A stretch of DNA of 64,000 bases from Candidatus Dormiibacterota bacterium (GCA_049644325.1 JBARRR010000039.1:19867-83866); one strand, 5' to 3'. Shown: positions 8,994 through 51,273, counted from the first letter of the stretch. Notes: a model not told the origin generated them from the sequence alone. Translations and numbers: made by a program.

Positions 8994-10289
8994 ATGGTCT
9001 CCGAGCTCCTCTCGCGCGGATTCCGGCGTGCACGTGCGCGCGCCGCCGGTTTCGCGCTGGTAACCGCGATCGGGCTCAGCCTTTTGGCGCCGGTGGGCGC
9101 ACTGGCGGCACCGAGCATCGCCGGCTGCCCCGTGTTCCCCGCCGACAACGTCTGGAACACCGACATCTCCTCCCTCCCGGTGCACGGGCTGAGCGGGGCC
9201 TGGCTCGGCAACATGGGGGGCGCGGGCCGCCACCTTCACCCCGACTTTGGCTCTTCGGGCGATCCCTCGGCGCCCTACGGCATCCCCTACATCGTGGTCA
9301 ACGGCTCCCACGCCAAGGTCTCGGTCACCTTCCAGTACGCCGGCGAAAGTGACAGGGGGCCCTACCCATTCGGCCCCGACACCCCCATCGAGGGCGGCCA
9401 GAACGCGGGCGGCGATCGCCATGCATTGATGGTGGACAGCAGCAGCTGCACCCTTTACGAGCTCTACAACGCGCGGTACAGCTCCGCTGGCTCAACCGCC
9501 GGGTCGGGCGCGGTCTTCAACCTCCGCGCCAACGGGCCCCTGCGCCCGGCGACGTGGACCTCGGCTGACGCCGCCGGTCTGCCGATATTGCCGGGCCTGT
9601 TGCGCCCCGAGGAGGTCCGCGCCGGGGTCGTCAACCACGCCATCCGCTTCACCGCCCAGAGCACCGACCGAAGCTTCATCTGGCCGGCGCGCCACCAGGC
9701 GGGGTCGGCCAGCAACGCCGCCCTGCCGCCGATGGGCGCCCGCTTCCGGCTCAAGGCGGGCTACGACATCTCGCACTTCCACGGCGCGGCGCAGGCGGTC
9801 CTCAACGCCATGAAGCGCTACGGATTGATCCTGGCCGACAACGGCTCCAACTGGTACTTCCAGGGCGCGGCCGACAACAGCTGGGACGACACCATGATCA
9901 ACGAGCTCAAGACTGTTCCGGCCGGCGCCTTCGACGCCGTGGACGAGTCGTCGCTGATGATCGACCCCAACTCCGGCCAGGCGCGGCAGCCCGGTGGGGC
10001 GACGGGACCGGTGTCGAACCGCGCCGCCACCTCATCGGCGCCGGCCGCTTCCGCGCCGGGCACTGCGGCGCCGGCGACCACCGCGACGGCAGACGCGACC
10101 CCATTGGAACAGCACGAGGTGGCCTTTGCGGACCCTGTCGTCGCCTCGACCGGTCGGGCCGCCACCGCCACCGGGGGTGCCCTGGCCGGCCAGTCGCCGC
10201 CGTGGCAGCTGGCCGTGGGGTTGGCGGCGGGCCTGCTGCTGGCGGTCGGCGTCGGTGGCGCCTGGCTCCTGCGCGGCCGGCTCCAGTAA
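8994..10289 (+). CDS. Secreted protein of unknown function, with an Ala/Thr-rich linker and a C-terminal membrane anchor.
   Basis: An N-terminal signal peptide is present (LVTAIGLSLLAPVGALAAPS). The C-terminus is GLAAGLLLAVGVGGAWLLRGRLQ, a hydrophobic helix with a basic tail and no LPXTG. Confidence 0.6.
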   Translation: MVSELLSRGFRRARARAAGFALVTAIGLSLLAPVGALAAPSIAGCPVFPADNVWNTDISSLPVHGLSGAWLGNMGGAGRHLHPDFGSSGDPSAPYGIPYIVVNGSHAKVSVTFQYAGESDRGPYPFGPDTPIEGGQNAGGDRHALMVDSSSCTLYELYNARYSSAGSTAGSGAVFNLRANGPLRPATWTSADAAGLPILPGLLRPEEVRAGVVNHAIRFTAQSTDRSFIWPARHQAGSASNAALPPMGARFRLKAGYDISHFHGAAQAVLNAMKRYGLILADNGSNWYFQGAADNSWDDTMINELKTVPAGAFDAVDESSLMIDPNSGQARQPGGATGPVSNRAATSSAPAASAPGTAAPATTATADATPLEQHEVAFADPVVASTGRAATATGGALAGQSPPWQLAVGLAAGLLLAVGVGGAWLLRGRLQ

Positions 10290-14022: not shown

Positions 14023-14739
14023 ATGGCCGCCAACCGCCCGCTGATCGCCGACGTCCGCCGGGGGCTGGCCGCGCGGGCCGACCCCGTGCGGGCCGAGTAC
14101 CAGAAGGCCTACATGAAGTCAGCGCTGCCTTACTACGGCGTCAACAACGGCGACATGCGGCGCACCGCAAGGCGGGTTTTCGCGGAGCACCCGCTGCCTG
14201 ACTTCGCCGCCTGGCGCGACACCGCGCTGGAGCTTTGGCGCAGGGCGAGGCACCGCGAGGAGCGATACGCCGCCCTGGAGCTGCTGGGGTACCGAGCCTA
14301 CCGGGAGCACCAGGTCCTGGCGGCCCTACCCATGTATGAGGAGATGGTGGTCACCGGGGGATGGTGGGATTACGTCGATGACATCGCGGTCCACCGCCTT
14401 GGCCCCATGCTGCTGGCGTTCCCCAGGGAGATGGGCCGGGAGATTCGGGACTGGAGCAGGGACCCCGACATGTGGAAGCGGCGGGCGTCGATCATCTGCC
14501 AGGTTCTGGCCCGGGGCAGGACCGACACCGGCCTGCTCAGGGCCGCGATCCAACCCAACCTGGGGGACCGGGACTTCTTCATCCGCAAGGCAATCGGGTG
14601 GGCGCTGCGGGAGCACGCCAAGGTCGATGCCGCCTGGGTGGCGGCTTACGTCGCCGAGCATGAATCCCAGCTCAGCGGGCTGAGCCGGCGCGAGGCGCTC
14701 AAGCACATAAGTCGTCACAGCACCGCGGGCAATGTTTGA
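14023..14739 (+). CDS. DNA alkylation repair protein (AlkD/AlkC-like HEAT-repeat glycosylase family). Tentative.
   Basis: The product is about 238 aa and all-helical, with GWWDYVDDIAVHRLGPML and GWALRE. The ATG at 14023 is 21 bp from the divergent hydratase start. The ORF extension from 13669 overlaps the neighbour and is rejected. Confidence 0.5.
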   Translation: MAANRPLIADVRRGLAARADPVRAEYQKAYMKSALPYYGVNNGDMRRTARRVFAEHPLPDFAAWRDTALELWRRARHREERYAALELLGYRAYREHQVLAALPMYEEMVVTGGWWDYVDDIAVHRLGPMLLAFPREMGREIRDWSRDPDMWKRRASIICQVLARGRTDTGLLRAAIQPNLGDRDFFIRKAIGWALREHAKVDAAWVAAYVAEHESQLSGLSRREALKHISRHSTAGNV

Positions 14740-14901: not shown

Positions 14902-15210
14902 GTGAGCTATCAGGACAAGGTCCTGACCTGTCGTGACTGCGGTCAGCAGTTCACATTCACCGCAGGCGAACAGGAGTTTTACGCGTCCAAGGGTTTGCAG
15001 AACGAGCCCGGTCGGTGCCCCGACTGCCGCGCCATCCGGCGTGGTTCTCGTGGCGGCGCCGGCGCCGGCGGCAGCGCCTCACGTCAAATGTTTGACGTGG
15101 TCTGCAGCAGCTGCGGTCAGCCGACCCAGGTACCCTTCCAGCCGACGAGTGGCCGGCCGGTGTACTGCAGCGACTGCTTCAGCCGGCTGCCCGGACGCAG
15201 CTACCGGTAG
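14902..15210 (+). CDS. Small double zinc-ribbon protein (two CxxC...CxxC units).
   Basis: The two units are CRDCGQQFTF..FYASKGL..PGRCPDCR and a second CSSCGQP...YCSDCF. A GTG start is preceded by AGGAGG at -8. The gene is convergent with the helicase gene. Confidence 0.7.
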   Translation: MSYQDKVLTCRDCGQQFTFTAGEQEFYASKGLQNEPGRCPDCRAIRRGSRGGAGAGGSASRQMFDVVCSSCGQPTQVPFQPTSGRPVYCSDCFSRLPGRSYR

Positions 15211-15288
15211 AAACGATGCGGCCCTTGGGGCCGCCATCGCGGATCGAGAGGGCCCCTTCTGGGGCCCTCTCCTTTTTTGCCGCCCCGG

Positions 15289-18027
15289 CTACCCTTCGGC
15301 GGGTGCCGGCGGGTCTCCACTGGGTTCGCGGGGCGGCGCGACCCGCTCGGCCGGGGACGACTCGGTTGGCATCGAGGGATGCTCGACGTTTGTTGTTTGG
15401 CCACCGTCCGACGCTGCTGTGGTGTCGCCTGGCATGGCGCCGCGTCTCCGACGCCGGCGGCGACGCCTTCTCGACCGGCGCGGCGGATCCATGTCGCCGG
15501 TGCGCGGGCGCGTGTCGGAGCCTGCCACCGCGTCGGCCTCGCCGGCGGCGCCGTTCTCGGCGGCATCGGGGAGAGCTTCGCCTGGGGTCCAGTCGCGCAG
15601 GCGGGGCAGCCGCCGCGGCGTGGCGTCGGCGCCGCTGTCGCCGCCACCGCCGTTCTCCTCCGTCGGTGTGATCGACACCACCCGAGCCTGGCCCTCGCGG
15701 GGCTGGCGGGTGCGGCGCCGGCGGCGCTTCTGGCCCTTGGCGACGTGCGGCAGGCGGTTCCAGGGGATGATCGCGCCGCTGCGGCGAAAGCCCTCCAAAA
15801 CCTGGCGGAGGACGCGGTTGCTGCGCACCGTCTGGCTGTCGCCGACGATGATCAGCAGCCTCTTGGCTCGCGACATGGCCACGTTGATCCGGTTGTGAAC
15901 CTCGAGGAAGCCGACCATGCCACGCGGGTTGCTGCGGACCAGGTCGACGATGACGATGTCGGCCTCGGCGCCCTCGAAGGCGTCGACGGTGTCGGCCCGG
16001 AAGTCGCGATTGGTCCATTGCTTCCAGCCGCCGTACCGGCGCAGCTGCTCGCGGTACATCCCGATCAACGCGATGTTGAGGGACGGGTCGGTGCGCTCGC
16101 TCACCATCCGCACCAGACCGCGGCAGATGTTGACGTGGTTGAGGTTGTAGATCGATCCGTTGCCGGTACGCATCTCACGGACCTCGGCGCCCGCGGAGTC
16201 AATCCAGATCAGGGAGCGGGGCGCGCCCATGATCTTGGGGCGCTGGTACTTCTTGACCACCTCGCCATCGCGCAGCTGGCCGCGGTAGAAGCGCTGGCTA
16301 ACCAGGTGGCGGATCGCCGGGTGCATCCGGTGCTGGACCAGGAAAACCGTCTTGTTGGTCTCCGGCAGGGTCGAGCCCCACAGGATCTCGAAATAGCTGC
16401 TGCGGGCCAGGTGCCACTCCGGGGTGCCGCGGCGGAGCTCGCCGAGGTCCTCCTCCTCGACGACTGGAGGAAGCTGGTGGTGATCGCCGATGAGGACGAC
16501 CCGCTCGCCGAGGGCGATGAAGGGAAGGGTCTCCTCGGCGCGGGCCTTGTTGGCCTCGTCGAGGAAAGCGTAGGTGTACTGCTCGCCCCGCTGGCCCTCG
16601 GTCACCACCGCCTTGTTGCAGGTTGCCGCCACAACGCGCTCGTCGCCGGCGCGGTCCCAGGTGCCCACGCCGACGTCGTCGCCGGCGCGGAGGCGGAAGA
16701 TCTTGACGCCGACCTTCTGCAGGCGCTCGGTGGCGTCGTCGACGGCGCGGTTGGAGTGCGAGGAGATCAGGATCCGGGCGTGCGGCTGCGCCTCCAGGAT
16801 CTGGCGCACGGCCTCGACGATGACGGTCGTCTTGCCGGTGCCGGGCGGCCCTTGCAGCATCATCACCGAGCCCTGGGGCATCGCCACCACGCGACGTACG
16901 GCCTCCTGCTGCTCGAGGTTGTCCTCGATCATCTCGTTGAACAAGGGGTTCGGTAGCGCGTCGTCGCGGGGTTGGGGGATCTTCTCCGGCTCCGCCACCA
17001 GCTGCACCACGGTGGCCAGGTCGGGGTGACCGGAGAGCGCCATGTCCAGGGCGTGGCGCTGCGCCGCGGCCACCGCGCCACCTTCGATGGGGGAGACCTC
17101 GACGTTGTCGGGCAGAACCGCCGGGCGCTTGAAGGAGACCCGCAGCCGGTTGCGGTCCATCACCTCGAACGGCGCCTCGATCTCGCCGTACGGCGTGATC
17201 ACCTGGAGCTTCTGGAAGGAGTTGAAACGATCTGCCTGTCCGGGGCCCAGCTCCAGGGTCGCCTGGGTCGCCGCACCGGGGTTTTGGAAGCCCGAACCGA
17301 GCGGCTTGCCGCAGTTGGGGCACGCGCGCTGTGGCGGCTCCATGCGGTGGTGGCAGCCTGGGCACTCCAGCTCCGTCGACGCCACCGTGGCCTTGCGGCG
17401 CAGCTCCCGGGCGCGCTTCTCGCGCGCGGTCTGGAGCACGTCGAGGACGGTGTCGACCTGCTCCAGGAAGGTGCGGGCAGGCGAGGAAACTGGGATCGGC
17501 GTGAAGGTGCCCAGGTCCTCCCCGTCGCTGCCGGCGGCGGCGCCCGGGGTCCCGGGCACGCCGAAGTTGCGATACCACTGGGCCAGCTCCGAGCTCCATT
17601 CCTGGCCGACGGGGGCGAACGTGACCCTCGGGGCCTCGATCTTGGGCAGCAGCAGCCACTCGCTCTGGCTGACCTCGATCGGCTTCATGTCCTCGATTCG
17701 AAGCGCCGCGCGCTGCATGTTCATGTCGTTGGGCGGCGTGTCCACGTGGGTGGCGAAGGCGTGGTACTTGCCCGGCTGGGGCTGGAAGATGAGGGTCACC
17801 TCGTAGGCGCGACCCAGCATCAACCCGAAGGTCACCCCGGCGAAGAAGTCGCTGAGGTAGACGTAGGCGTCATCCTTGCCCTCTGACAGCGCGGCCAGCC
17901 AGGGCACGTTGGAGAGATCCACCTGGATGACCAGGTGTTCGAGCGAGTAGTCCCGAAGCGGTTCAACCGCAGGATTGTCGATGAGTGTGTTGTTGTGTCC
18001 GGGGTGCTCGGGTGGGGCTCGCTTCAC
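15289..18027 (-). CDS. Upf1-like (DNA2/NAM7-type) SF1B helicase, 912 aa. It has an uncharacterised N-terminal region of about 370 aa containing a C4 zinc ribbon, and an Arg-rich, poly-R disordered C-terminal tail.
   Basis: The helicase motifs are: motif I MLQGPPGTGKTT, motif II FLDEANKA, motif III GDHHQLPPV, motif V VQHRMHPAI and motif VI VAMSRAKRLLIIVGD. The zinc ribbon is ECPGCHHRMEPPQRACPNCG at about aa 221-240. The tail from aa 765 onward includes RRSRRRRRRRRRRG. Confidence 0.8.
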   Translation of the reverse strand: MKRAPPEHPGHNNTLIDNPAVEPLRDYSLEHLVIQVDLSNVPWLAALSEGKDDAYVYLSDFFAGVTFGLMLGRAYEVTLIFQPQPGKYHAFATHVDTPPNDMNMQRAALRIEDMKPIEVSQSEWLLLPKIEAPRVTFAPVGQEWSSELAQWYRNFGVPGTPGAAAGSDGEDLGTFTPIPVSSPARTFLEQVDTVLDVLQTAREKRARELRRKATVASTELECPGCHHRMEPPQRACPNCGKPLGSGFQNPGAATQATLELGPGQADRFNSFQKLQVITPYGEIEAPFEVMDRNRLRVSFKRPAVLPDNVEVSPIEGGAVAAAQRHALDMALSGHPDLATVVQLVAEPEKIPQPRDDALPNPLFNEMIEDNLEQQEAVRRVVAMPQGSVMMLQGPPGTGKTTVIVEAVRQILEAQPHARILISSHSNRAVDDATERLQKVGVKIFRLRAGDDVGVGTWDRAGDERVVAATCNKAVVTEGQRGEQYTYAFLDEANKARAEETLPFIALGERVVLIGDHHQLPPVVEEEDLGELRRGTPEWHLARSSYFEILWGSTLPETNKTVFLVQHRMHPAIRHLVSQRFYRGQLRDGEVVKKYQRPKIMGAPRSLIWIDSAGAEVREMRTGNGSIYNLNHVNICRGLVRMVSERTDPSLNIALIGMYREQLRRYGGWKQWTNRDFRADTVDAFEGAEADIVIVDLVRSNPRGMVGFLEVHNRINVAMSRAKRLLIIVGDSQTVRSNRVLRQVLEGFRRSGAIIPWNRLPHVAKGQKRRRRRTRQPREGQARVVSITPTEENGGGGDSGADATPRRLPRLRDWTPGEALPDAAENGAAGEADAVAGSDTRPRTGDMDPPRRSRRRRRRRRRRGAMPGDTTAASDGGQTTNVEHPSMPTESSPAERVAPPREPSGDPPAPAEG

Positions 18028-20679: not shown

Positions 20680-21480
20680 ATGGGAAACCGGGCTCTCCAG
20701 CTCGTAACACTCATCGTCGCCGTGGCTGTCGGCGTCGGTGCGGCCTTCGGTGTGCGCGCAGTTCGAAACGTCTCCCCACAGCAGGCGTCCTCGAATACGT
20801 CAACCAGCTCCTCAACCTCGCCTTCGCCGAGCGCTAGCCCATCGATTTCGGCCTCGCCGACGCCCGCGGAATCCGCCTCGCCGGCCCCCGCGGCGTCGCC
20901 GGCGGCCCCCAGCCGGACAGGCGCCGCTTACCCGCAGCAGATCCAGGCCGGGAGCGTATACCAGTACTCCGGAAGCAGCAGCCTAGCTGCAGTAGCGAGC
21001 GACAGTTCGGACGGCGGGTCATCGGTGTGCGCCGGGATCAATACCACCAGCCAAGTTATCCCGCCTGGTTATCTGGCCGCCTACTTCGTGTCGGTGACGT
21101 TCCGGGACGGCCAGGTTATCTCATCCGGATACCTGCGCCAGGGAAGCGCCTCCAATGACTGGGGGCAGCTGCAAAACAACTCCACCAAGGATGCTAAACA
21201 GGAGTCGTCGCCGACCCCGGCTGGTACTCATACCTACTGCGTCACCAGGAGTGGTGGTGCCTGGATCACGACCGCGGACGGCGCCACTATCTACAGCACC
21301 ACGGCCGAGCCAGCCACATCGTTCGGCGGAACAACACTTAACTTCGAGTCCACCATCCAGCGCAAGGCCGACAACAGCGGTCCCGTCAAGGCGCTCAGCT
21401 TTTTTGTCCCGGGGTTCAAAGCCCTTGCCATCGACGGCCAGCCGCCGACCCAGCTCAAGGGCGCAACCAAGACCTTTTAA
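20680..21480 (+). CDS. Membrane-anchored Ser/Pro-rich extracytoplasmic protein (hypothetical).
   Basis: It has an N-terminal TM (LVTLIVAVAVGVGAAFG), a PSAS-rich linker and a globular C-terminal domain. Confidence 0.5.
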   Translation: MGNRALQLVTLIVAVAVGVGAAFGVRAVRNVSPQQASSNTSTSSSTSPSPSASPSISASPTPAESASPAPAASPAAPSRTGAAYPQQIQAGSVYQYSGSSSLAAVASDSSDGGSSVCAGINTTSQVIPPGYLAAYFVSVTFRDGQVISSGYLRQGSASNDWGQLQNNSTKDAKQESSPTPAGTHTYCVTRSGGAWITTADGATIYSTTAEPATSFGGTTLNFESTIQRKADNSGPVKALSFFVPGFKALAIDGQPPTQLKGATKTF

Positions 21481-23649: not shown

Positions 23650-24750
23650 ATGCGTTTACTCCACGTCGCTGACCTGCATCTCGATCGAGCCTTTGGGGGT
23701 ATGGCCTTCGCCGGGTGCGATGGCGCCCGCCGGCGCAGCCTCCTGCGCCAGGGGCTGGAATGGGCCGTCGACACCGCCATCGAGGGCAGGGCCGACGCCG
23801 TGACGATCGGCGGCGACCTCTTTGAGATCGAGCACATCACCAGTGACACTGCGGCGTTTATCGCCCGGCAACTGGGCCGGCTGGACTGTCCCGTGGTGCT
23901 GGCGGCGGGTAACCACGACCCCGCCACGGCGGCGTCGCCCTACCGGACCCTGGAGTGGGCCGCCAACGTCACCCTGGCCCTTGACCCCGTCCCTGTGCGC
24001 GTGGAGACGCCGGACGCCGTGATCTGGGCGCTGGGCTATGCCAGTCGCGAGATCGACGGCGCCGCCTTGAGGTCCTTCCATGTTCCTCCGAACGACGGTC
24101 GCGCCCAGCTGCTGGTGGTCCACGCCGTGGACCTGACCCGGATGGGGACCGACCGAGATTGGGGCAGCCTGGGCCTGCTGCAGCCGGATGTGCGGGCGAT
24201 GGGCATCGACCACGCCCTCCTCGGCCATATCCACTCCGGCCAGGCCGGCGAGCTGATGTCCTGGCCGGGCTCGCCGGTGCCGCTGGATCCCAGCGAGACC
24301 AGCGGCAACCATGGCGCCCTCTGGGTGGACGCGACCCCGGAGCGCGTGGCGGTGGAGGCGGTCGCAGCCGGCCTCAGCCGCTTCGGGGCGGTCAGCGTCG
24401 ACGTCGCCGAGGTGGCCGACTCGTCGGAGCTGGGCAGCCGGGTTCGCGAGAGGCTGGAGGCGAGCCCCGAGCGCGAACGGGCGCTGGTCAGCATCAGGCT
24501 TTACGGCCGCCGCGCCAAGAGCCTGGCGATCGAGCCGGCAGCGCTGGCGGCGGCCGCCTCCGAGTCGGTGATGGGCGCCCTGGTGGCCGACGCCACCGAG
24601 CCCGAGGTCGACCTGGCCCAGCTGGCCCAGGAGCCCAACGCCCGCGGCAGGGCGGTGGCGCGTCTACTCGAGGATGGCGGGGACGTCGGGTTGCGGGCGG
24701 CCCAGCTGGTGGTCGACGCATTCGAAGGCGACATCAGGGTCCCGGCGTGA
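23650..24750 (+). CDS. SbcD/Mre11-like metallophosphoesterase (YhaO-like DNA repair exonuclease).
   Basis: The N-terminus is MRLLHVADLHLD, with GGDLFE and AAGNHD calcineurin-like motifs. Confidence 0.75.
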   Translation: MRLLHVADLHLDRAFGGMAFAGCDGARRRSLLRQGLEWAVDTAIEGRADAVTIGGDLFEIEHITSDTAAFIARQLGRLDCPVVLAAGNHDPATAASPYRTLEWAANVTLALDPVPVRVETPDAVIWALGYASREIDGAALRSFHVPPNDGRAQLLVVHAVDLTRMGTDRDWGSLGLLQPDVRAMGIDHALLGHIHSGQAGELMSWPGSPVPLDPSETSGNHGALWVDATPERVAVEAVAAGLSRFGAVSVDVAEVADSSELGSRVRERLEASPERERALVSIRLYGRRAKSLAIEPAALAAAASESVMGALVADATEPEVDLAQLAQEPNARGRAVARLLEDGGDVGLRAAQLVVDAFEGDIRVPA

Positions 24751-24766
24751 CCATGGGAGCGGCGCG

Positions 24767-26734
24767 ATGAGACTGGTGTCGCTCCGGGTGCGGGGCTACC
24801 GAAGGTTCCACGACATCCTGGTCGACTGCGACCACGACCGGCTGCTGGTAGTCGGTCCCAACGAGGCCGGCAAGTCGACGCTGATGGAGTGCCTGCTGGC
24901 CGGGCTCTTCGGGCTGGCGCCCAGCAAGCGGGGCGGTGGCCACCAGGGAGCGCTGCGCGACGCATCACCCTGGAATGGCGAGCCCTGCGGCCTGAGCCTC
25001 GCATACCGGCTCGACAGCGGGCGCATGGTCGAGGTCGACTGGGACTTCAGCGGCGAGCGCACCCAGGTCATCGACCACACCGGGGGTGACGACATCAGCG
25101 CGGAGTTCACCGGCGGCACCCACGGCTGGCTCGACGTCGGCCAGGCGATGCTGGGTGTGTCTTCGACGGTCTTCCGCCAGTTCACCTGCGTGGGGGAGGG
25201 GGAGCTGGCGGTGATCAGCGACGATGCCGAGATCCGCGAGAGCCTGCTCCGCCTCAGCGATTCCGGGGTTGACGTGCTGGTGGAGCAGGCAATCACCCGC
25301 TTGGAGGACGCTGCCCGCCAGTCGACCATCCCCAAGGCCAACTCCGCCACCCGCCGCAACCAGCTGGAGCGCGACCTGGTCGCCGCCCAGAGGGAGCTGG
25401 ACCGGGTCACCGCGGCGCGGGCCGAGCTCGACTCCGACGTCCACGCGATTGCCCGGACCGAGTCGGCGATCGAGCGCGCCCGCGACGAGGTCGCCGGGAT
25501 GATGGCCGAGGACGACCGCCGCCAGGAGGAGCAGCGGCGCCTGAGCGCGGAGATCGAGCGGGCCTACGGCCGGCTGGCCGAGGCCGAGCTGCGCCGGGCG
25601 TCACTGAGCGCCGACGCGGATGTCCCCAAGGAGGGCCCGCCCTGGAGCGACGCCGACATCGAGACCGCCCGCCAGCTGCTGGTCAGTCCCGAGGAGGCGG
25701 GGAAGCGCCCGGGTCTGCTGCCGCTGATCGTCGGGCTGCTGCTCATCCTGGCGGGCATCGGCGGCCTCGCCGGTGGCCTGGTCGCCCAACTGGGGCCGAT
25801 GCTGGCCGCATCCGCCGCGGTGGCGGCCATTGGGGTCCTGCTCGTGACCCGAGGCGGCATGGGGGCCGCGCGGGCGCGGCTGAGAGTCGGTGCCATGACC
25901 TTCCCTGACAGGGCAGCGCTGATGATCGCCCTCGACCACCAGCGAGCGCGGCGCGAGCTGGCGCAACAGCAGAAGGCGGTTGACGACATCCAGGCGCGGC
26001 TCGACCAGCTGCTCCAGCCGGCTGCGGACATCGATGGCGGCGCGCCCCGCGAGGCCCAGGCCCGCCTCAGCGCCGCCAAGGTGCGACAGACCGAGCTGCG
26101 GCTGCAGCTGGAGCGGCAGCGCACGTCGTTGTCGGTTCGCACCAGCCAGGTCGGGGACGTCGCCGCACTCGAGGAGCAGGTGGCCGGGCTCGGAGCGCAG
26201 ATCGGCGAGCTGGAGGCGTTCGGTGAGTCGGCGCGTCTGGCGGCCCAGCACCTGAAGCAGGCGTCGGAGGAGATCCGACGCGCCTACGCGCCCAAGCTCC
26301 AGGCCTACCTTTCCCGTGACCTGCCACGGATCACGTCGGGACGCTATTCCGAGGCGGTGGTCAACGACAAGTTCGAGGTCATGGTCAGGGCTCCCGAAAC
26401 CAAACAGATGGTGGACCTGGGCCGCCTCAGCCGGGGCACCCAACAGCAGATCTACCTGCTGCTCCGTCTGGGCCTCCTCGACATCGTCGGCTCCAAGGCC
26501 GAACGGCTGCCACTGTTCCTTGACGACGCCCTCGCCCTGAGCGACGAGGACCGCCGCTCCGAGCTGCTCGCGGTGCTGGAGTCCGAGGACCGCCAGGTGA
26601 TCTACTTCACCGCGCAGGAGACCACCGCGGCATCCGCGTTCGCGGATGCGTGGCACCGCGTTCTTCTGCCCGGCCCCAGTGCCGCCGGCAGCGCGCCGCC
26701 CGAGCTCAAGGTTCTCGACTCGCCCCGGGGTTAG
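24767..26734 (+). CDS. SbcC/Rad50-like SMC-type ATPase (YhaN-like) with internal transmembrane segments.
   Basis: Walker A is VVGPNEAGKSTL, the signature-like motif is LSRGTQQQI and the Walker B/D-loop is LPLFLDDAL. There is a coiled-coil middle. Two hydrophobic helices are present: LLPLIVGLLLILAGIGGLAGGLV and LAASAAVAAIGVLLV. Confidence 0.75.
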   Translation: MRLVSLRVRGYRRFHDILVDCDHDRLLVVGPNEAGKSTLMECLLAGLFGLAPSKRGGGHQGALRDASPWNGEPCGLSLAYRLDSGRMVEVDWDFSGERTQVIDHTGGDDISAEFTGGTHGWLDVGQAMLGVSSTVFRQFTCVGEGELAVISDDAEIRESLLRLSDSGVDVLVEQAITRLEDAARQSTIPKANSATRRNQLERDLVAAQRELDRVTAARAELDSDVHAIARTESAIERARDEVAGMMAEDDRRQEEQRRLSAEIERAYGRLAEAELRRASLSADADVPKEGPPWSDADIETARQLLVSPEEAGKRPGLLPLIVGLLLILAGIGGLAGGLVAQLGPMLAASAAVAAIGVLLVTRGGMGAARARLRVGAMTFPDRAALMIALDHQRARRELAQQQKAVDDIQARLDQLLQPAADIDGGAPREAQARLSAAKVRQTELRLQLERQRTSLSVRTSQVGDVAALEEQVAGLGAQIGELEAFGESARLAAQHLKQASEEIRRAYAPKLQAYLSRDLPRITSGRYSEAVVNDKFEVMVRAPETKQMVDLGRLSRGTQQQIYLLLRLGLLDIVGSKAERLPLFLDDALALSDEDRRSELLAVLESEDRQVIYFTAQETTAASAFADAWHRVLLPGPSAAGSAPPELKVLDSPRG

Positions 26735-39609: not shown

Positions 39610-39692
39610 GTCGGCGTGGTGGAACGGTAGACACGCCAGCTTTAGGAGCTGGTCCCCGCGAGGGGGTGGAGGTTCGAGTCCTCTCGCCGACA
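39610..39692 (+). tRNA. tRNA-Leu (anticodon UAG), class II with a long variable arm.
   Basis: The acceptor stem is 7 bp, GTCGGCG/CGCCGAC. The anticodon stem is CCAGC/GCTGG with loop TTTAGGA. The variable arm is a hairpin, TCCCCGCGAGGGGGT. The T-loop is TTCGAGT with stem GGAGG/CCTCT. The discriminator is A and CCA is not encoded. Confidence 0.85.
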
Positions 39693-49893: not shown

Positions 49894-50850
49894 GTGACCT
49901 ACGGCACGATCAAGTGCCCCAACTGCGGGGCGCCCATCCCGGTCAACAGCGAGGCGTGTCAGTACTGCGGCGAGGCCCTGCCCAAGGCCGCGCCCCCACC
50001 GCCGCAGGCGACGCCTTCGGTCATGCTCAACTTCAACCAGGAGGCCTTCGACCAGGTGGCGGTCGCAAGCGCTCGCAGCTTCCTGTGGGCCTTCATCGCC
50101 ATCCCCATCGTGCTGGTGGTGATCGGGATCATCGTCGCCGTTACGGTGTTCTCGAGCCTGGGACGCAGCACCTCCAGCGGCCTGTCTCTCGGCACCTCCA
50201 GCAACGTCTCCCAGCTGCAGTCCAAGAAGTGCGAGAACTGCAGCCTGCCCAACACCACCGCCAACAACACCGACCTCTCCGGGGGCAAGTTCAGGGGCAT
50301 CAGCCTGGTCAACGGCAGCTTCCGGGGCAGCAACTTCAAGAACGCAGACCTGTCCCGGGCCGACCTCAGCAACGCCAAGATGTCCAATGCCGACCTGTCG
50401 GGGGCCGACCTCACCGGGGCGAAGCTCAGCAACGTAGACCTCAGCGGCGCCAACCTCTCTGGCGCCAAGCTGGACTCGGTCACCGCCGCCAACACCGACT
50501 TCAGCCAGGCCAACCTGAAGGAGGTGAGCATCACGGGGACGCCGGCGCTGGTCAACGCCGTCCTCAACGGGGCCGACCTGACCGGCGCCACGCTGCAGAA
50601 CGCGGACCTGACCAATGGCAAGCTCGACCACGCCAAGCTCCGCAGCGCCAGCCTGACCGACGTCAAGCTGATCAACGGCATTCTCACCGGGGCCGACCTC
50701 ACCAGCGCCAAGCTGACCCGCATCAATTTCATCAACGCCAACCTGACCGGGGCCACGACCGCCGGGGTGACGTCCACCGGGACCAGCACGTGGACCAACG
50801 CCCACTGCGTCGACGGCGGCGTGGTGCCGTTCGGCGGCAAGTGCTTCTGA
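49894..50850 (+). CDS. Pentapeptide-repeat protein with an N-terminal C4 zinc ribbon and one TM.
   Basis: The zinc ribbon is CPNCG...CQYCG and the TM is LWAFIAIPIVLVVIGIIVAV. About 30 A(D/N)LSG-type pentapeptide units follow. Confidence 0.8.
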   Translation: MTYGTIKCPNCGAPIPVNSEACQYCGEALPKAAPPPPQATPSVMLNFNQEAFDQVAVASARSFLWAFIAIPIVLVVIGIIVAVTVFSSLGRSTSSGLSLGTSSNVSQLQSKKCENCSLPNTTANNTDLSGGKFRGISLVNGSFRGSNFKNADLSRADLSNAKMSNADLSGADLTGAKLSNVDLSGANLSGAKLDSVTAANTDFSQANLKEVSITGTPALVNAVLNGADLTGATLQNADLTNGKLDHAKLRSASLTDVKLINGILTGADLTSAKLTRINFINANLTGATTAGVTSTGTSTWTNAHCVDGGVVPFGGKCF

Positions 50851-50887
50851 ACTCGGTTTAGGCGCACTCCTGGCGGGTTAAGATCTG

Positions 50888-51273
50888 GTGTTGCGTGACG
50901 AGTCGGCAAGGTGACCGCGGCGGGAGCGATCCCGTCGAGGAAAGTCCGAGCTCCGTAGAGCAGAGTGCCGGGTAACACCCGGCGGGCGTGAGCCCAGGGA
51001 AAGTGCCACAGAAAATACACAGCCTCGGCGTAAGCCGGGGTGAAGGTGAAATGGTGGAGGTAAGAGCCCACCGGCGACCGGGAGACCGGCCGGCCTGGTA
51101 AACCCCACTCGGAGCAAGACCTAAAGGAGGACGCCAAGGCTGCTCGCCAAGTCCTCGGGTTGGTCGCTGGAGGCGCCGGGTAACCGGCGCCGTAGATAGA
51201 TGGTCACCACCCCAAGGCCTTTACCGCCTAGGGGTACAGAACTCGGCTTACCGCCGGTCTCGCCACGCAACAC
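50888..51273 (+). ncRNA. rnpB: RNase P RNA, bacterial type A.
   Basis: Conserved blocks are present: GGAAAGTCCGAGCTCC, CACAGAAAATACA, GGTGAAATGGTGGAGGTAAGAGCCCACC, GGTAAACCCCACTCGGAGCAAGACC and ACAGAACTCGGCTTA. The P1 helix pairs 5-prime GTGTTGCGTGACGAG with 3-prime CTCGCCACGCAACAC. Confidence 0.9.

Follow-up and report, generated by a model that had tools for sequence, protein, structure and literature searches.

The window analysed here, 64,000 nucleotides (about 69% G+C as a whole) from a Candidatus Dormiibacterota metagenome-assembled genome (MAG), carries on its minus strand a gene for a 912-aa helicase (15289..18027; GTG start, stop codon at 15289-15291). We consider that this protein is probably a stand-alone, vertically inherited and phylum-restricted Upf1-like superfamily 1B (SF1B) translocase, which by analogy with its characterized relatives would act on RNA or single-stranded DNA (ssDNA) and would use arginine tracts to tether nucleic acid. 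From the N-terminus to the C-terminus, the protein consists of an acidic N-terminal domain (NTD), a stalk helix, a C4 zinc ribbon, a 1B barrel, further stalk helices, the RecA-like domains 1A and 2A, and a tail of about 150 residues.

The helicase gene is real and stands alone. An identical protein (P0001), from a Candidatus Dormiibacterota MAG, is labelled simply as an "AAA domain-containing protein", and the helicase bears no specific name in databases, as expected from the original prediction, made from the sequence, that it was an unassigned variant. The G+C content at third codon positions (GC3) of the frame is 0.82-0.93 over its entire length. In other loci, protein-level conservation begins at about aa 12-16, and this supports the long N-terminus. 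The homologues used below fall into two tiers: tier 1 comprises about 19 clusters, 70-91% identical, from Dormibacteria MAGs, and tier 2 proteins are about 33% identical, with a best local alignment spanning up to about 65% of the query.

The RecA-like motor (1A + 2A, aa ~365-756; 15760..16935, minus strand) contains motifs I, Ia, II, III, V and VI. The 912-aa open reading frame (ORF) and all the motifs originally quoted for it were found in the translation, namely GPPGTGKT (aa 393-400), LDEA (489-492), GDHHQLPP (514-521), QHRMHP (565-570) and SRAKRLLIIVGD (719-730); the superfamily 1 (SF1) set also includes SHSNRAVD, TVDAFEG and VAMSRAKR. Pfam searches yielded AAA_11 (E 4.6e-28, 99 bits) and AAA_12 (E 1.9e-36, 126 bits; cut-offs 27), with no significant match upstream of aa 365. 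The closest proteins of known structure found with phmmer in the PDB sequences were IGHMBP2, Upf1/Nam7 and Sen1 (E 1e-31 to 1e-22), the IGHMBP2 and Upf1 cores aligning at E 8e-31 to 2e-25 over aa 347-446 and 487-753; ZNFX1 and Dna2 (E 2.7e-17) were also among the best solved relatives of the motor. These matches bear out the earlier description of the protein as a Upf1-type helicase, and the full motif set places it, at the level of sequence, in the Upf1-like SF1B group. Three named families were considered and rejected: the IGHMBP2 equivalog TIGR00376 (189 bits against a cut-off of 348.9, with no R3H or AN1 match), RecD2 (36 bits against 500) and the DUF4011 (Hhe) helicases (21.6 bits against 2000). 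The last two had been put forward as well-known families from which the N-terminal region might turn out to derive, and both models scored far below their cut-offs.

In Upf1 and IGHMBP2, a helical 1C domain sits between Walker A and Walker B (residues 271-346 of IGHMBP2), and Upf1 no longer binds nucleic acid once this domain is deleted (PMC3505976). The end of Walker A (motif I) is separated from motif II by 89 aa in our helicase and by 98-99 aa in tier 2, and only 40 residues of the query (447-486) face residues 264-369 of IGHMBP2, the stretch that includes 1C. We therefore conclude that the helicase has no 1C domain. Since nidovirus nsp13 also lacks 1C, this domain is a feature of a subgroup and not a requirement for membership.

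The region upstream of the motor

The original prediction stated that the 370 aa preceding the motor matched no domain. For aa 180-350 this did not hold. The AlphaFold2 (AF2) model of aa 1-384, obtained with 19 sequences, was confident over aa 180-350 (predicted local distance difference test, pLDDT, about 80-95) and showed a helix, a strand with the zinc ribbon, a barrel and terminal helices. The first stalk helix (helix a, aa 182-208, QVDTVLDVLQTAREKRA...; 17404..17484, minus strand) is an AF2 helix in a block with pLDDT values of 78-95, invariant in tier 1 and alignable in tier 2. It is followed by the C4 zinc ribbon (aa 211-243; 17299..17397, minus strand; pLDDT 86-95), which lies between the stalk helix and the barrel and reads C222-P-G-C225-x10-C236-P-N-C239. 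The ribbon reported originally is thus real, with a spacer of 10 residues and not 13, and its four cysteines (C222, C225, C236 and C239) are invariant in both clades, which are 18-21% identical over the N-terminal region; the Pfam zinc-ribbon matches to this segment were sub-threshold. The 1B beta-barrel (aa 252-314; 17086..17274, minus strand) has five AF2 strands (pLDDT 86-94), and the second stalk element (helices b, aa 317-345; 16993..17079, minus strand) is formed by AF2 helices 317-331 and 335-345, in which the sequence AAAQRHALD...LSGHPDL is invariant across tier 1.

For aa 180-350, a Foldseek search of the PDB placed IGHMBP2 first (4b3g_A; E 6.9e-4, probability 1.00), followed by Upf1 (9qdq_A and 2gk6_A), and PF23576 (SEN1_barrel) gave weak matches in eight of 19 members. 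A search of the PDB sequences with the aa 1-384 profile returned only sub-threshold zinc-ribbon look-alikes (L32 and S14; E of at least 0.013). In IGHMBP2, the stalk is formed by residues 3-33 and 142-158, which flank domain 1B (residues 34-141) (PMC3505976). As the topology and position of aa 180-350 equal those of the IGHMBP2 stalk and 1B, this segment is not an unknown module: on the predicted structure, it is the regulatory stalk-and-1B module standard for the Upf1-like family, interrupted by a C4 ribbon.

The motor motifs and the order stalk-1B-stalk-1A-2A are common to our helicase and to IGHMBP2 (SMUBP-2) and Upf1 (PDB 4b3f, 4b3g, 2gk6 and 2xzl), and in all of these proteins accessory nucleic-acid-binding or regulatory modules are appended to the core. 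In IGHMBP2 these are the downstream R3H and AN1 domains; in Upf1, a zinc-knuckle CH domain on the upstream side exerts its effect through 1B (PMC3505976). The helicase differs from both in that it lacks 1C, has an NTD with no detectable relative and carries a poly-arginine tail in place of R3H and AN1; furthermore, its C4 ribbon lies inside the stalk/1B unit, whereas the CH domain of Upf1 is separate. The closest described domain inventory (zinc module, stalk, 1B, two RecA domains and no 1C) is that of nsp13, which has the order zinc-binding domain (ZBD)-stalk-1B-1A-2A and in which motor activity is adjusted by the stalk together with the zinc module (PMC6614802). However, the ZBD of nsp13 binds three zincs and precedes the stalk, whereas our helicase has a single C4 ribbon after the first stalk helix and an NTD without zinc; nsp13 was absent from the top fold matches of aa 180-350, and it has no basic tail.

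For the NTD itself (an acidic alpha/beta domain, aa ~27-155; 17563..17949, minus strand), the statement that no domain can be named was upheld, and no relative could be assigned. This part was poorly modelled in the first AF2 run (pLDDT 40-77). A second run restricted to aa 1-181, with 38 sequences, gave pLDDT values above 90 for aa 30-155, a predicted template-modelling score of 0.70 and five concordant models, in which the NTD folds as a compact alpha/beta domain. It had no match in the Pfam, PHROGs or PDB sequence searches, no solved-structure relative, no match in BFVD at E <= 1e-3 and no relative in viral contigs. The alignment of 38 sequences has no invariant column. All the near-invariant residues (L44, V65, L109 and P116) are hydrophobic or proline, and no acidic or lysine column, or any other charged residue, is conserved. 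The N-terminal region has a net charge of -5 to -18 in tier 1.

A degenerate NERD/PD-(D/E)xK stretch had been proposed for this region. We rejected such a fold for aa 53-78, in the absence of conserved catalytic residues and of any match to a nuclease fold: the residues suggestive of a nuclease, E76, H94 and D96, are conserved within tier 1 only. The NTD is therefore unlikely to be a nuclease.

The arginine-rich C-terminal tail

The last part of the protein is a disordered basic tail (aa 757-912; 15292..15759, minus strand) with about 19% arginine, 12-13% each of glycine, proline and alanine, 1% lysine and a net charge of +9. A first arginine run (R768-R772; 15712..15726, minus strand) has a counterpart of four or five arginines in 10 of 15 tier-1 orthologues. 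Further on, there is a conserved linear motif, PRRLPRLRDWTPGE (aa 804-817; 15577..15618, minus strand), in which P804, R805, R806, L807, R809, W813, P815 and G816 are invariant in all 15 orthologues, WxPG[ED] following PRRLPRLR in each of them. This peptide could be a docking motif. In three of the tier-2 tails examined (P0025, P0029 and P0030), a sequence F[AG]PGE occurs just ahead of a poly-arginine run.

The main poly-arginine tract, RRSRRRRRRRRRR (aa 850-862; 15442..15480, minus strand), contains R851 and R854-R859, which are unchanged across the 15 orthologues. Together with the next residue it reads RRSRRRRRRRRRRG (aa 850-863), encoded by CGC CGG TCG AGA AGG CGT CGC CGC CGG CGT CGG AGA CGC GGC. 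This mixture of CGN and AGR codons indicates, in agreement with the original prediction, that the tract is not a simple nucleotide repeat, and the arginine codons swap synonymously between the loci of orthologues. We surveyed the tails of 48 sequences: 44 full-length proteins with an intact C-terminus, three truncated at the N-terminus and one at the C-terminus. All 44 intact homologues, including those of the 33%-identical clade, have one to four runs of 4-11 arginines; the three N-terminally truncated proteins also bear arginine runs, and one run of four is left in the C-terminally truncated one. Where a member has at least three runs, these begin at intervals of about 40-55 residues. The composition is similar throughout (about 20% arginine and 0-4% lysine), with a net charge of +8 to +24 in most members. 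The last 45 or so residues of the tail are weakly constrained. P0006, a tier-1 protein of 997 aa, has a hydrophobic extension of about 130 residues after its tail that is not shared by other members; this extension probably results from a lost stop codon or from an assembly or frame problem of the contig.

Off-frame ORFs of a window with 69% G+C are rich in arginine runs, and the original prediction had itself raised the possibility that the tail was a frameshift artefact. In this frame, GC3 is 0.87-0.93 as far as about aa 850 and 0.82 for the tail as a whole, falling to 0.67-0.80 in the last 50 or so codons, an end that is poorly conserved. However, the reading frame is unchanged between motif VI and the stop codon in all 15 orthologues, with PRRLPRLRxWxPG and RRRRRR invariant, the 33%-identical clade bears the same kind of tail, arginine is retained despite synonymous codon changes and GC3 remains at 0.87-0.93 up to the tract. 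We therefore give almost no credence to the idea that the tail stems from a frameshift, from read-through or from GC-rich DNA translated out of frame, and an artefact is refuted up to about aa 865. The arginine-rich tail is in frame and conserved.

The arginine-rich segments of RNase E and the basic tails of DEAD-box helicases are disordered, low-complexity appendages that add non-specific affinity for RNA. The helicase tail is similar to them in composition (about 20% arginine and rich in glycine, proline and alanine), with no homology implied. It differs in that its arginines are concentrated in pure, spaced runs of 4-11 residues, with almost no lysine and no RGG repeats. A literature search on bacterial Upf1-like helicases with arginine-rich tails returned nothing specific, only a general review.

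Distribution of the family and its possible functions

The helicase family is small and essentially restricted to Dormibacterota, an uncultured soil phylum. A search seeded by a tier-2 member yielded at least 205 clusters, and the named matches were nearly all Candidatus Dormibacteria, Dormibacteraeota or Dormibacter. The aa 1-384 profile had 49 matches at E <= 1e-3 among 1.84 billion representative proteins. The NTD itself was matched only by tiers 1 and 2 and by three further representatives (P0132, P0136 and P0142), and six further helicases, one of whose six clusters is from Dormibacteraeota, share the stalk, zinc ribbon and barrel part only. A scan of the genome collection with the single protein, for which the search patterns were too specific, recovered only the near-identical MAG contig L001, and a metagenome scan with alignment A1 gave seven loci, several of them duplicates of known ones and three cut at the contig end.

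The gene order around the helicase is the same in all tier-1 loci: malic enzyme, helicase, (zinc-finger gene and AlkD-like DNA_alkylation gene), enoyl-CoA hydratase, HMG-CoA lyase and carboxyltransferase, the bracketed pair being variable as described below. In the three tier-2 loci examined, the helicase lies near genes for gyrase and glycine cleavage and near a PDZ/glutaredoxin-like gene. This last gene, of about 200 aa, starts 5-10 nt past the helicase stop codon in L007 (10816-11421) and L008 (10748-11359), and it may be co-transcribed with the tier-2 helicase; further on in L008 (11416-12440) are genes for an extracytoplasmic function (ECF) sigma factor and an Ogt-type methyltransferase.

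Bacterial Upf1-like helicases are, to our knowledge, known almost only from defence systems such as Mokosh and Nhi, and the original prediction mentioned this theme alongside RNA/DNA quality control. A defence reading would make the protein an anti-phage factor, either a Mokosh-like or Nhi-like helicase or a single-gene sensor of foreign RNA or DNA. The best PADLOC matches of the helicase were indeed the models for MkoA (E 1e-95 and 2.8e-75), and its next relatives (P0053-P0105), the nearest outside the family, are Ser/Thr-kinase-helicase fusions of 1,050-1,290 aa with the architecture of type I MkoA. However, these fusions match in the motor only, and the best-scoring stretch of the MkoA models covers only aa 464-756 of the motor, leaving the N-terminal 700 or so residues of MkoA unmatched. 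Mokosh combines a Upf1-like RNA helicase with a phospholipase D (PLD)-family nuclease, separate or fused, and the type I helicase adds a Ser/Thr kinase (bioRxiv 10.1101/2022.05.11.491447). Pfam detected neither a kinase nor a PLD domain in our helicase, and neither was present in the ten neighbouring genes scanned (about 6 kb), which gave no PADLOC match and have metabolic Pfam labels. With a motor-only match and metabolic flanks, we excluded membership of Mokosh. The Nhi model matched only the Walker A region (aa 372-448; E 2e-4, 18 bits), and the NTD has neither a conserved catalytic residue nor a nuclease fold match, so a nuclease-helicase of the Nhi type was excluded as well. Finally, the housekeeping synteny is stable over orthologues that are 70-97% identical, with no variable island, and the NTD has no viral or PHROG link. 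A role in defence is therefore highly improbable. The architecture of the fusions, which come from Streptomyces, Paraburkholderia and Deinococcus, suggests a recent common origin for the motors of housekeeping and defence helicases.

Several DNA-repair genes lie less than 10 kb from the helicase: the AlkD-like gene, and a metallophosphoesterase (SbcD-like) gene at 23650-24750 (plus strand) followed by a 686-aa ORF at 24674-26734 (plus strand). The matching pair in L005 (324 + 672 aa) includes an AAA_23 (SbcC-like) protein. The helicase could thus be a DNA-repair enzyme working on damaged DNA, exposing alkylated bases or processing breaks, with a tail that binds DNA. The AlkD-like gene (E 2.4e-59) is only two genes away, the SbcD/SbcC-like pair, about 6 kb away, is syntenic in L005, and Ogt is found two genes downstream in one tier-2 locus; moreover, the solved relatives include Dna2, and the substrates of IGHMBP2 comprise DNA as well as RNA. 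However, the repair genes are split off by other genes or lie on the opposite strand, the AlkD-like gene is absent from L004 and degraded in L010, in both of which the helicase is intact, repair genes neighbour the helicase in only one of three tier-2 loci, and the closest relatives (Upf1, IGHMBP2, Sen1 and MkoA) are mainly RNA-associated. We regard a dedicated repair function as unlikely, although far from negligible.

We therefore favour a stand-alone translocase inherited vertically within the phylum, for which the following mechanism can be proposed by analogy with Upf1, IGHMBP2, Sen1 and nsp13. ATP hydrolysis would drive 5'->3' movement on a single strand clamped between the 1B barrel and 1A/2A. 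Lying at the stalk/1B junction, the zinc ribbon probably stiffens or regulates 1B and may replace the channel wall that 1C forms in its relatives. The poly-arginine tracts would serve as multivalent tethers that bind nucleic acid regardless of its sequence and so load the enzyme onto it or keep it there, and the acidic NTD may mask the tail or recruit a partner. RNA would be slightly preferred over ssDNA as the substrate, in view of the RNA association of the nearest relatives and of the abundance of arginine in the tail; given the DNA-repair neighbours, ssDNA stays a serious alternative.

Several points weigh against this interpretation. The substrate (RNA or DNA), the polarity and the role of the tail are all assigned by analogy, and the nearby repair genes (AlkD-like, the SbcCD-like pair 6 kb off, and Ogt in tier 2) favour DNA. 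The 1B assignment rests on predicted structure, with a low TM-score (0.29, normalised to a multi-domain query of 384 residues), and a profile-to-sequence hhalign comparison of the N-terminal profile with P0103, which carries the Pfam SMUBP-2 1B domain, was not significant. Furthermore, five of six informative close loci keep the zinc-finger gene convergent with the helicase, so a clade-specific link is possible.

A more ambitious version would have the protein serve as a phylum-wide housekeeping helicase for RNA surveillance or remodelling, in which an NTD with a new fold gates the motor, possibly by charge pairing with the tail, and the spaced poly-arginine tracts, as a multivalent scaffold, raise the local concentration of the enzyme at ribosomes, the degradosome or RNA-rich condensates. 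We consider this decidedly unlikely; if true, it would provide a bacterial counterpart to the targeting of eukaryotic Upf1-like helicases by accessory modules. As for the stand-alone translocase, a vertically inherited member outside any island would mean that the Upf1-like fold also serves ordinary nucleic-acid metabolism in an uncultured phylum. It offers three testable features: an NTD without structural relatives whose model is confident, a ribbon inside the 1B/stalk unit of a motor lacking 1C, and a tail of pure, repeated poly-arginine conserved down to 33% identity.

The convergent zinc-finger gene and the remainder of the window

A gene for a zinc-finger (zf) protein of 102 aa (14902..15210, plus strand) faces the helicase gene stop to stop across 15211-15288 (78 bp), confirming the original report of a double zinc-ribbon protein at this distance on the opposite strand. 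Its two CxxC...CxxC modules correspond to zf_Tbcl (aa 4-50) and zf_Tbcl_2 (aa 61-94), with scores of 81.0 bits for PF13451 (cut-off 24), 70.3 for PF23477 (cut-off 27) and 70.3 for TIGR04272 (cut-off 36). The zf_Tbcl homologues form at least 4,415 clusters, with identities of 60-70% in Chloroflexota, Dehalococcoidia, Ktedonobacteraceae and Eubacteriales. In length and architecture, the neighbour resembles the other CxxC-x17-CxxC proteins of this family and has nothing distinctive. A literature search on zf_Tbcl, PF13451 and TIGR04272 found nothing.

The original prediction treated the helicase and the zinc-ribbon protein as possible parts of one system, and the latter could in principle be a protein that binds nucleic acid and assists or regulates the helicase, at least in tier 1. 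The two genes are convergent in five distinct tier-1 loci (L001, L002, L005, L010 and L013), and in L019 (2710-4333), from an unrelated metagenomic genome, a zf_Tbcl gene lies beside a DEAD-box helicase gene. However, synteny extends over the entire region, and the adjacency therefore cannot count as independent support for a system. In L004, the helicase and both flanks are kept, whereas the zf and AlkD-like genes have been lost together, and the zf gene is absent within 8 kb of the helicase in all three tier-2 loci examined. The zf family is orders of magnitude wider than the helicase family; none of the three zf loci examined from other phyla has an SF1 helicase nearby, and two of the three have no helicase neighbour of any kind. 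The 78-bp gap between the convergent genes also contains two terminator-like hairpins, one per strand (15218..15281): on the plus strand, 11 pairs (nine of them G-C) at 15246-15271 followed by CTTTTTTG, and on the minus strand, seven G-C pairs at 15234-15218. Region-wide, terminator-like sites are not above chance (three against 1.6 expected). A two-component unit is thus very unlikely. The adjacency reflects inherited synteny together with an independent distribution of zf, and the zf gene is a separately transcribed neighbour and not a subunit of the helicase. The proposed two-gene system is not there, and the understanding of the helicase class is unchanged.

If the zf gene has a local partner, it is more likely to be the AlkD-like gene than the helicase. 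This DNA_alkylation gene (PF08713; ~14056-14739, plus strand) lies about 160 nt upstream of zf and is co-directional with it; in L010, where zf is present, it is reduced to a remnant of 64 aa. The zf_Tbcl protein of L019 (65% identical) is encoded 58 nt downstream of the 410-aa DEAD-box helicase gene, on the same strand, and this single case hints that zf_Tbcl proteins may work with RNA helicases generally.

Elsewhere in the window, two apparently secreted or membrane-anchored proteins with low-complexity stretches rich in alanine, proline and serine (8994-10289, plus strand, 431 aa; 20680-21480, plus strand, 266 aa) had no Pfam or PADLOC match. An Rfam scan of the window found nothing near the helicase gene. 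Further away are a tRNA-Leu gene (39610-39692, plus strand) and a bacterial class A RNase P RNA gene (50899-51266, plus strand; 272 bits). A 392-aa ORF at 49959..51137 (minus strand) is probably spurious, since it overlaps the RNase P RNA gene.

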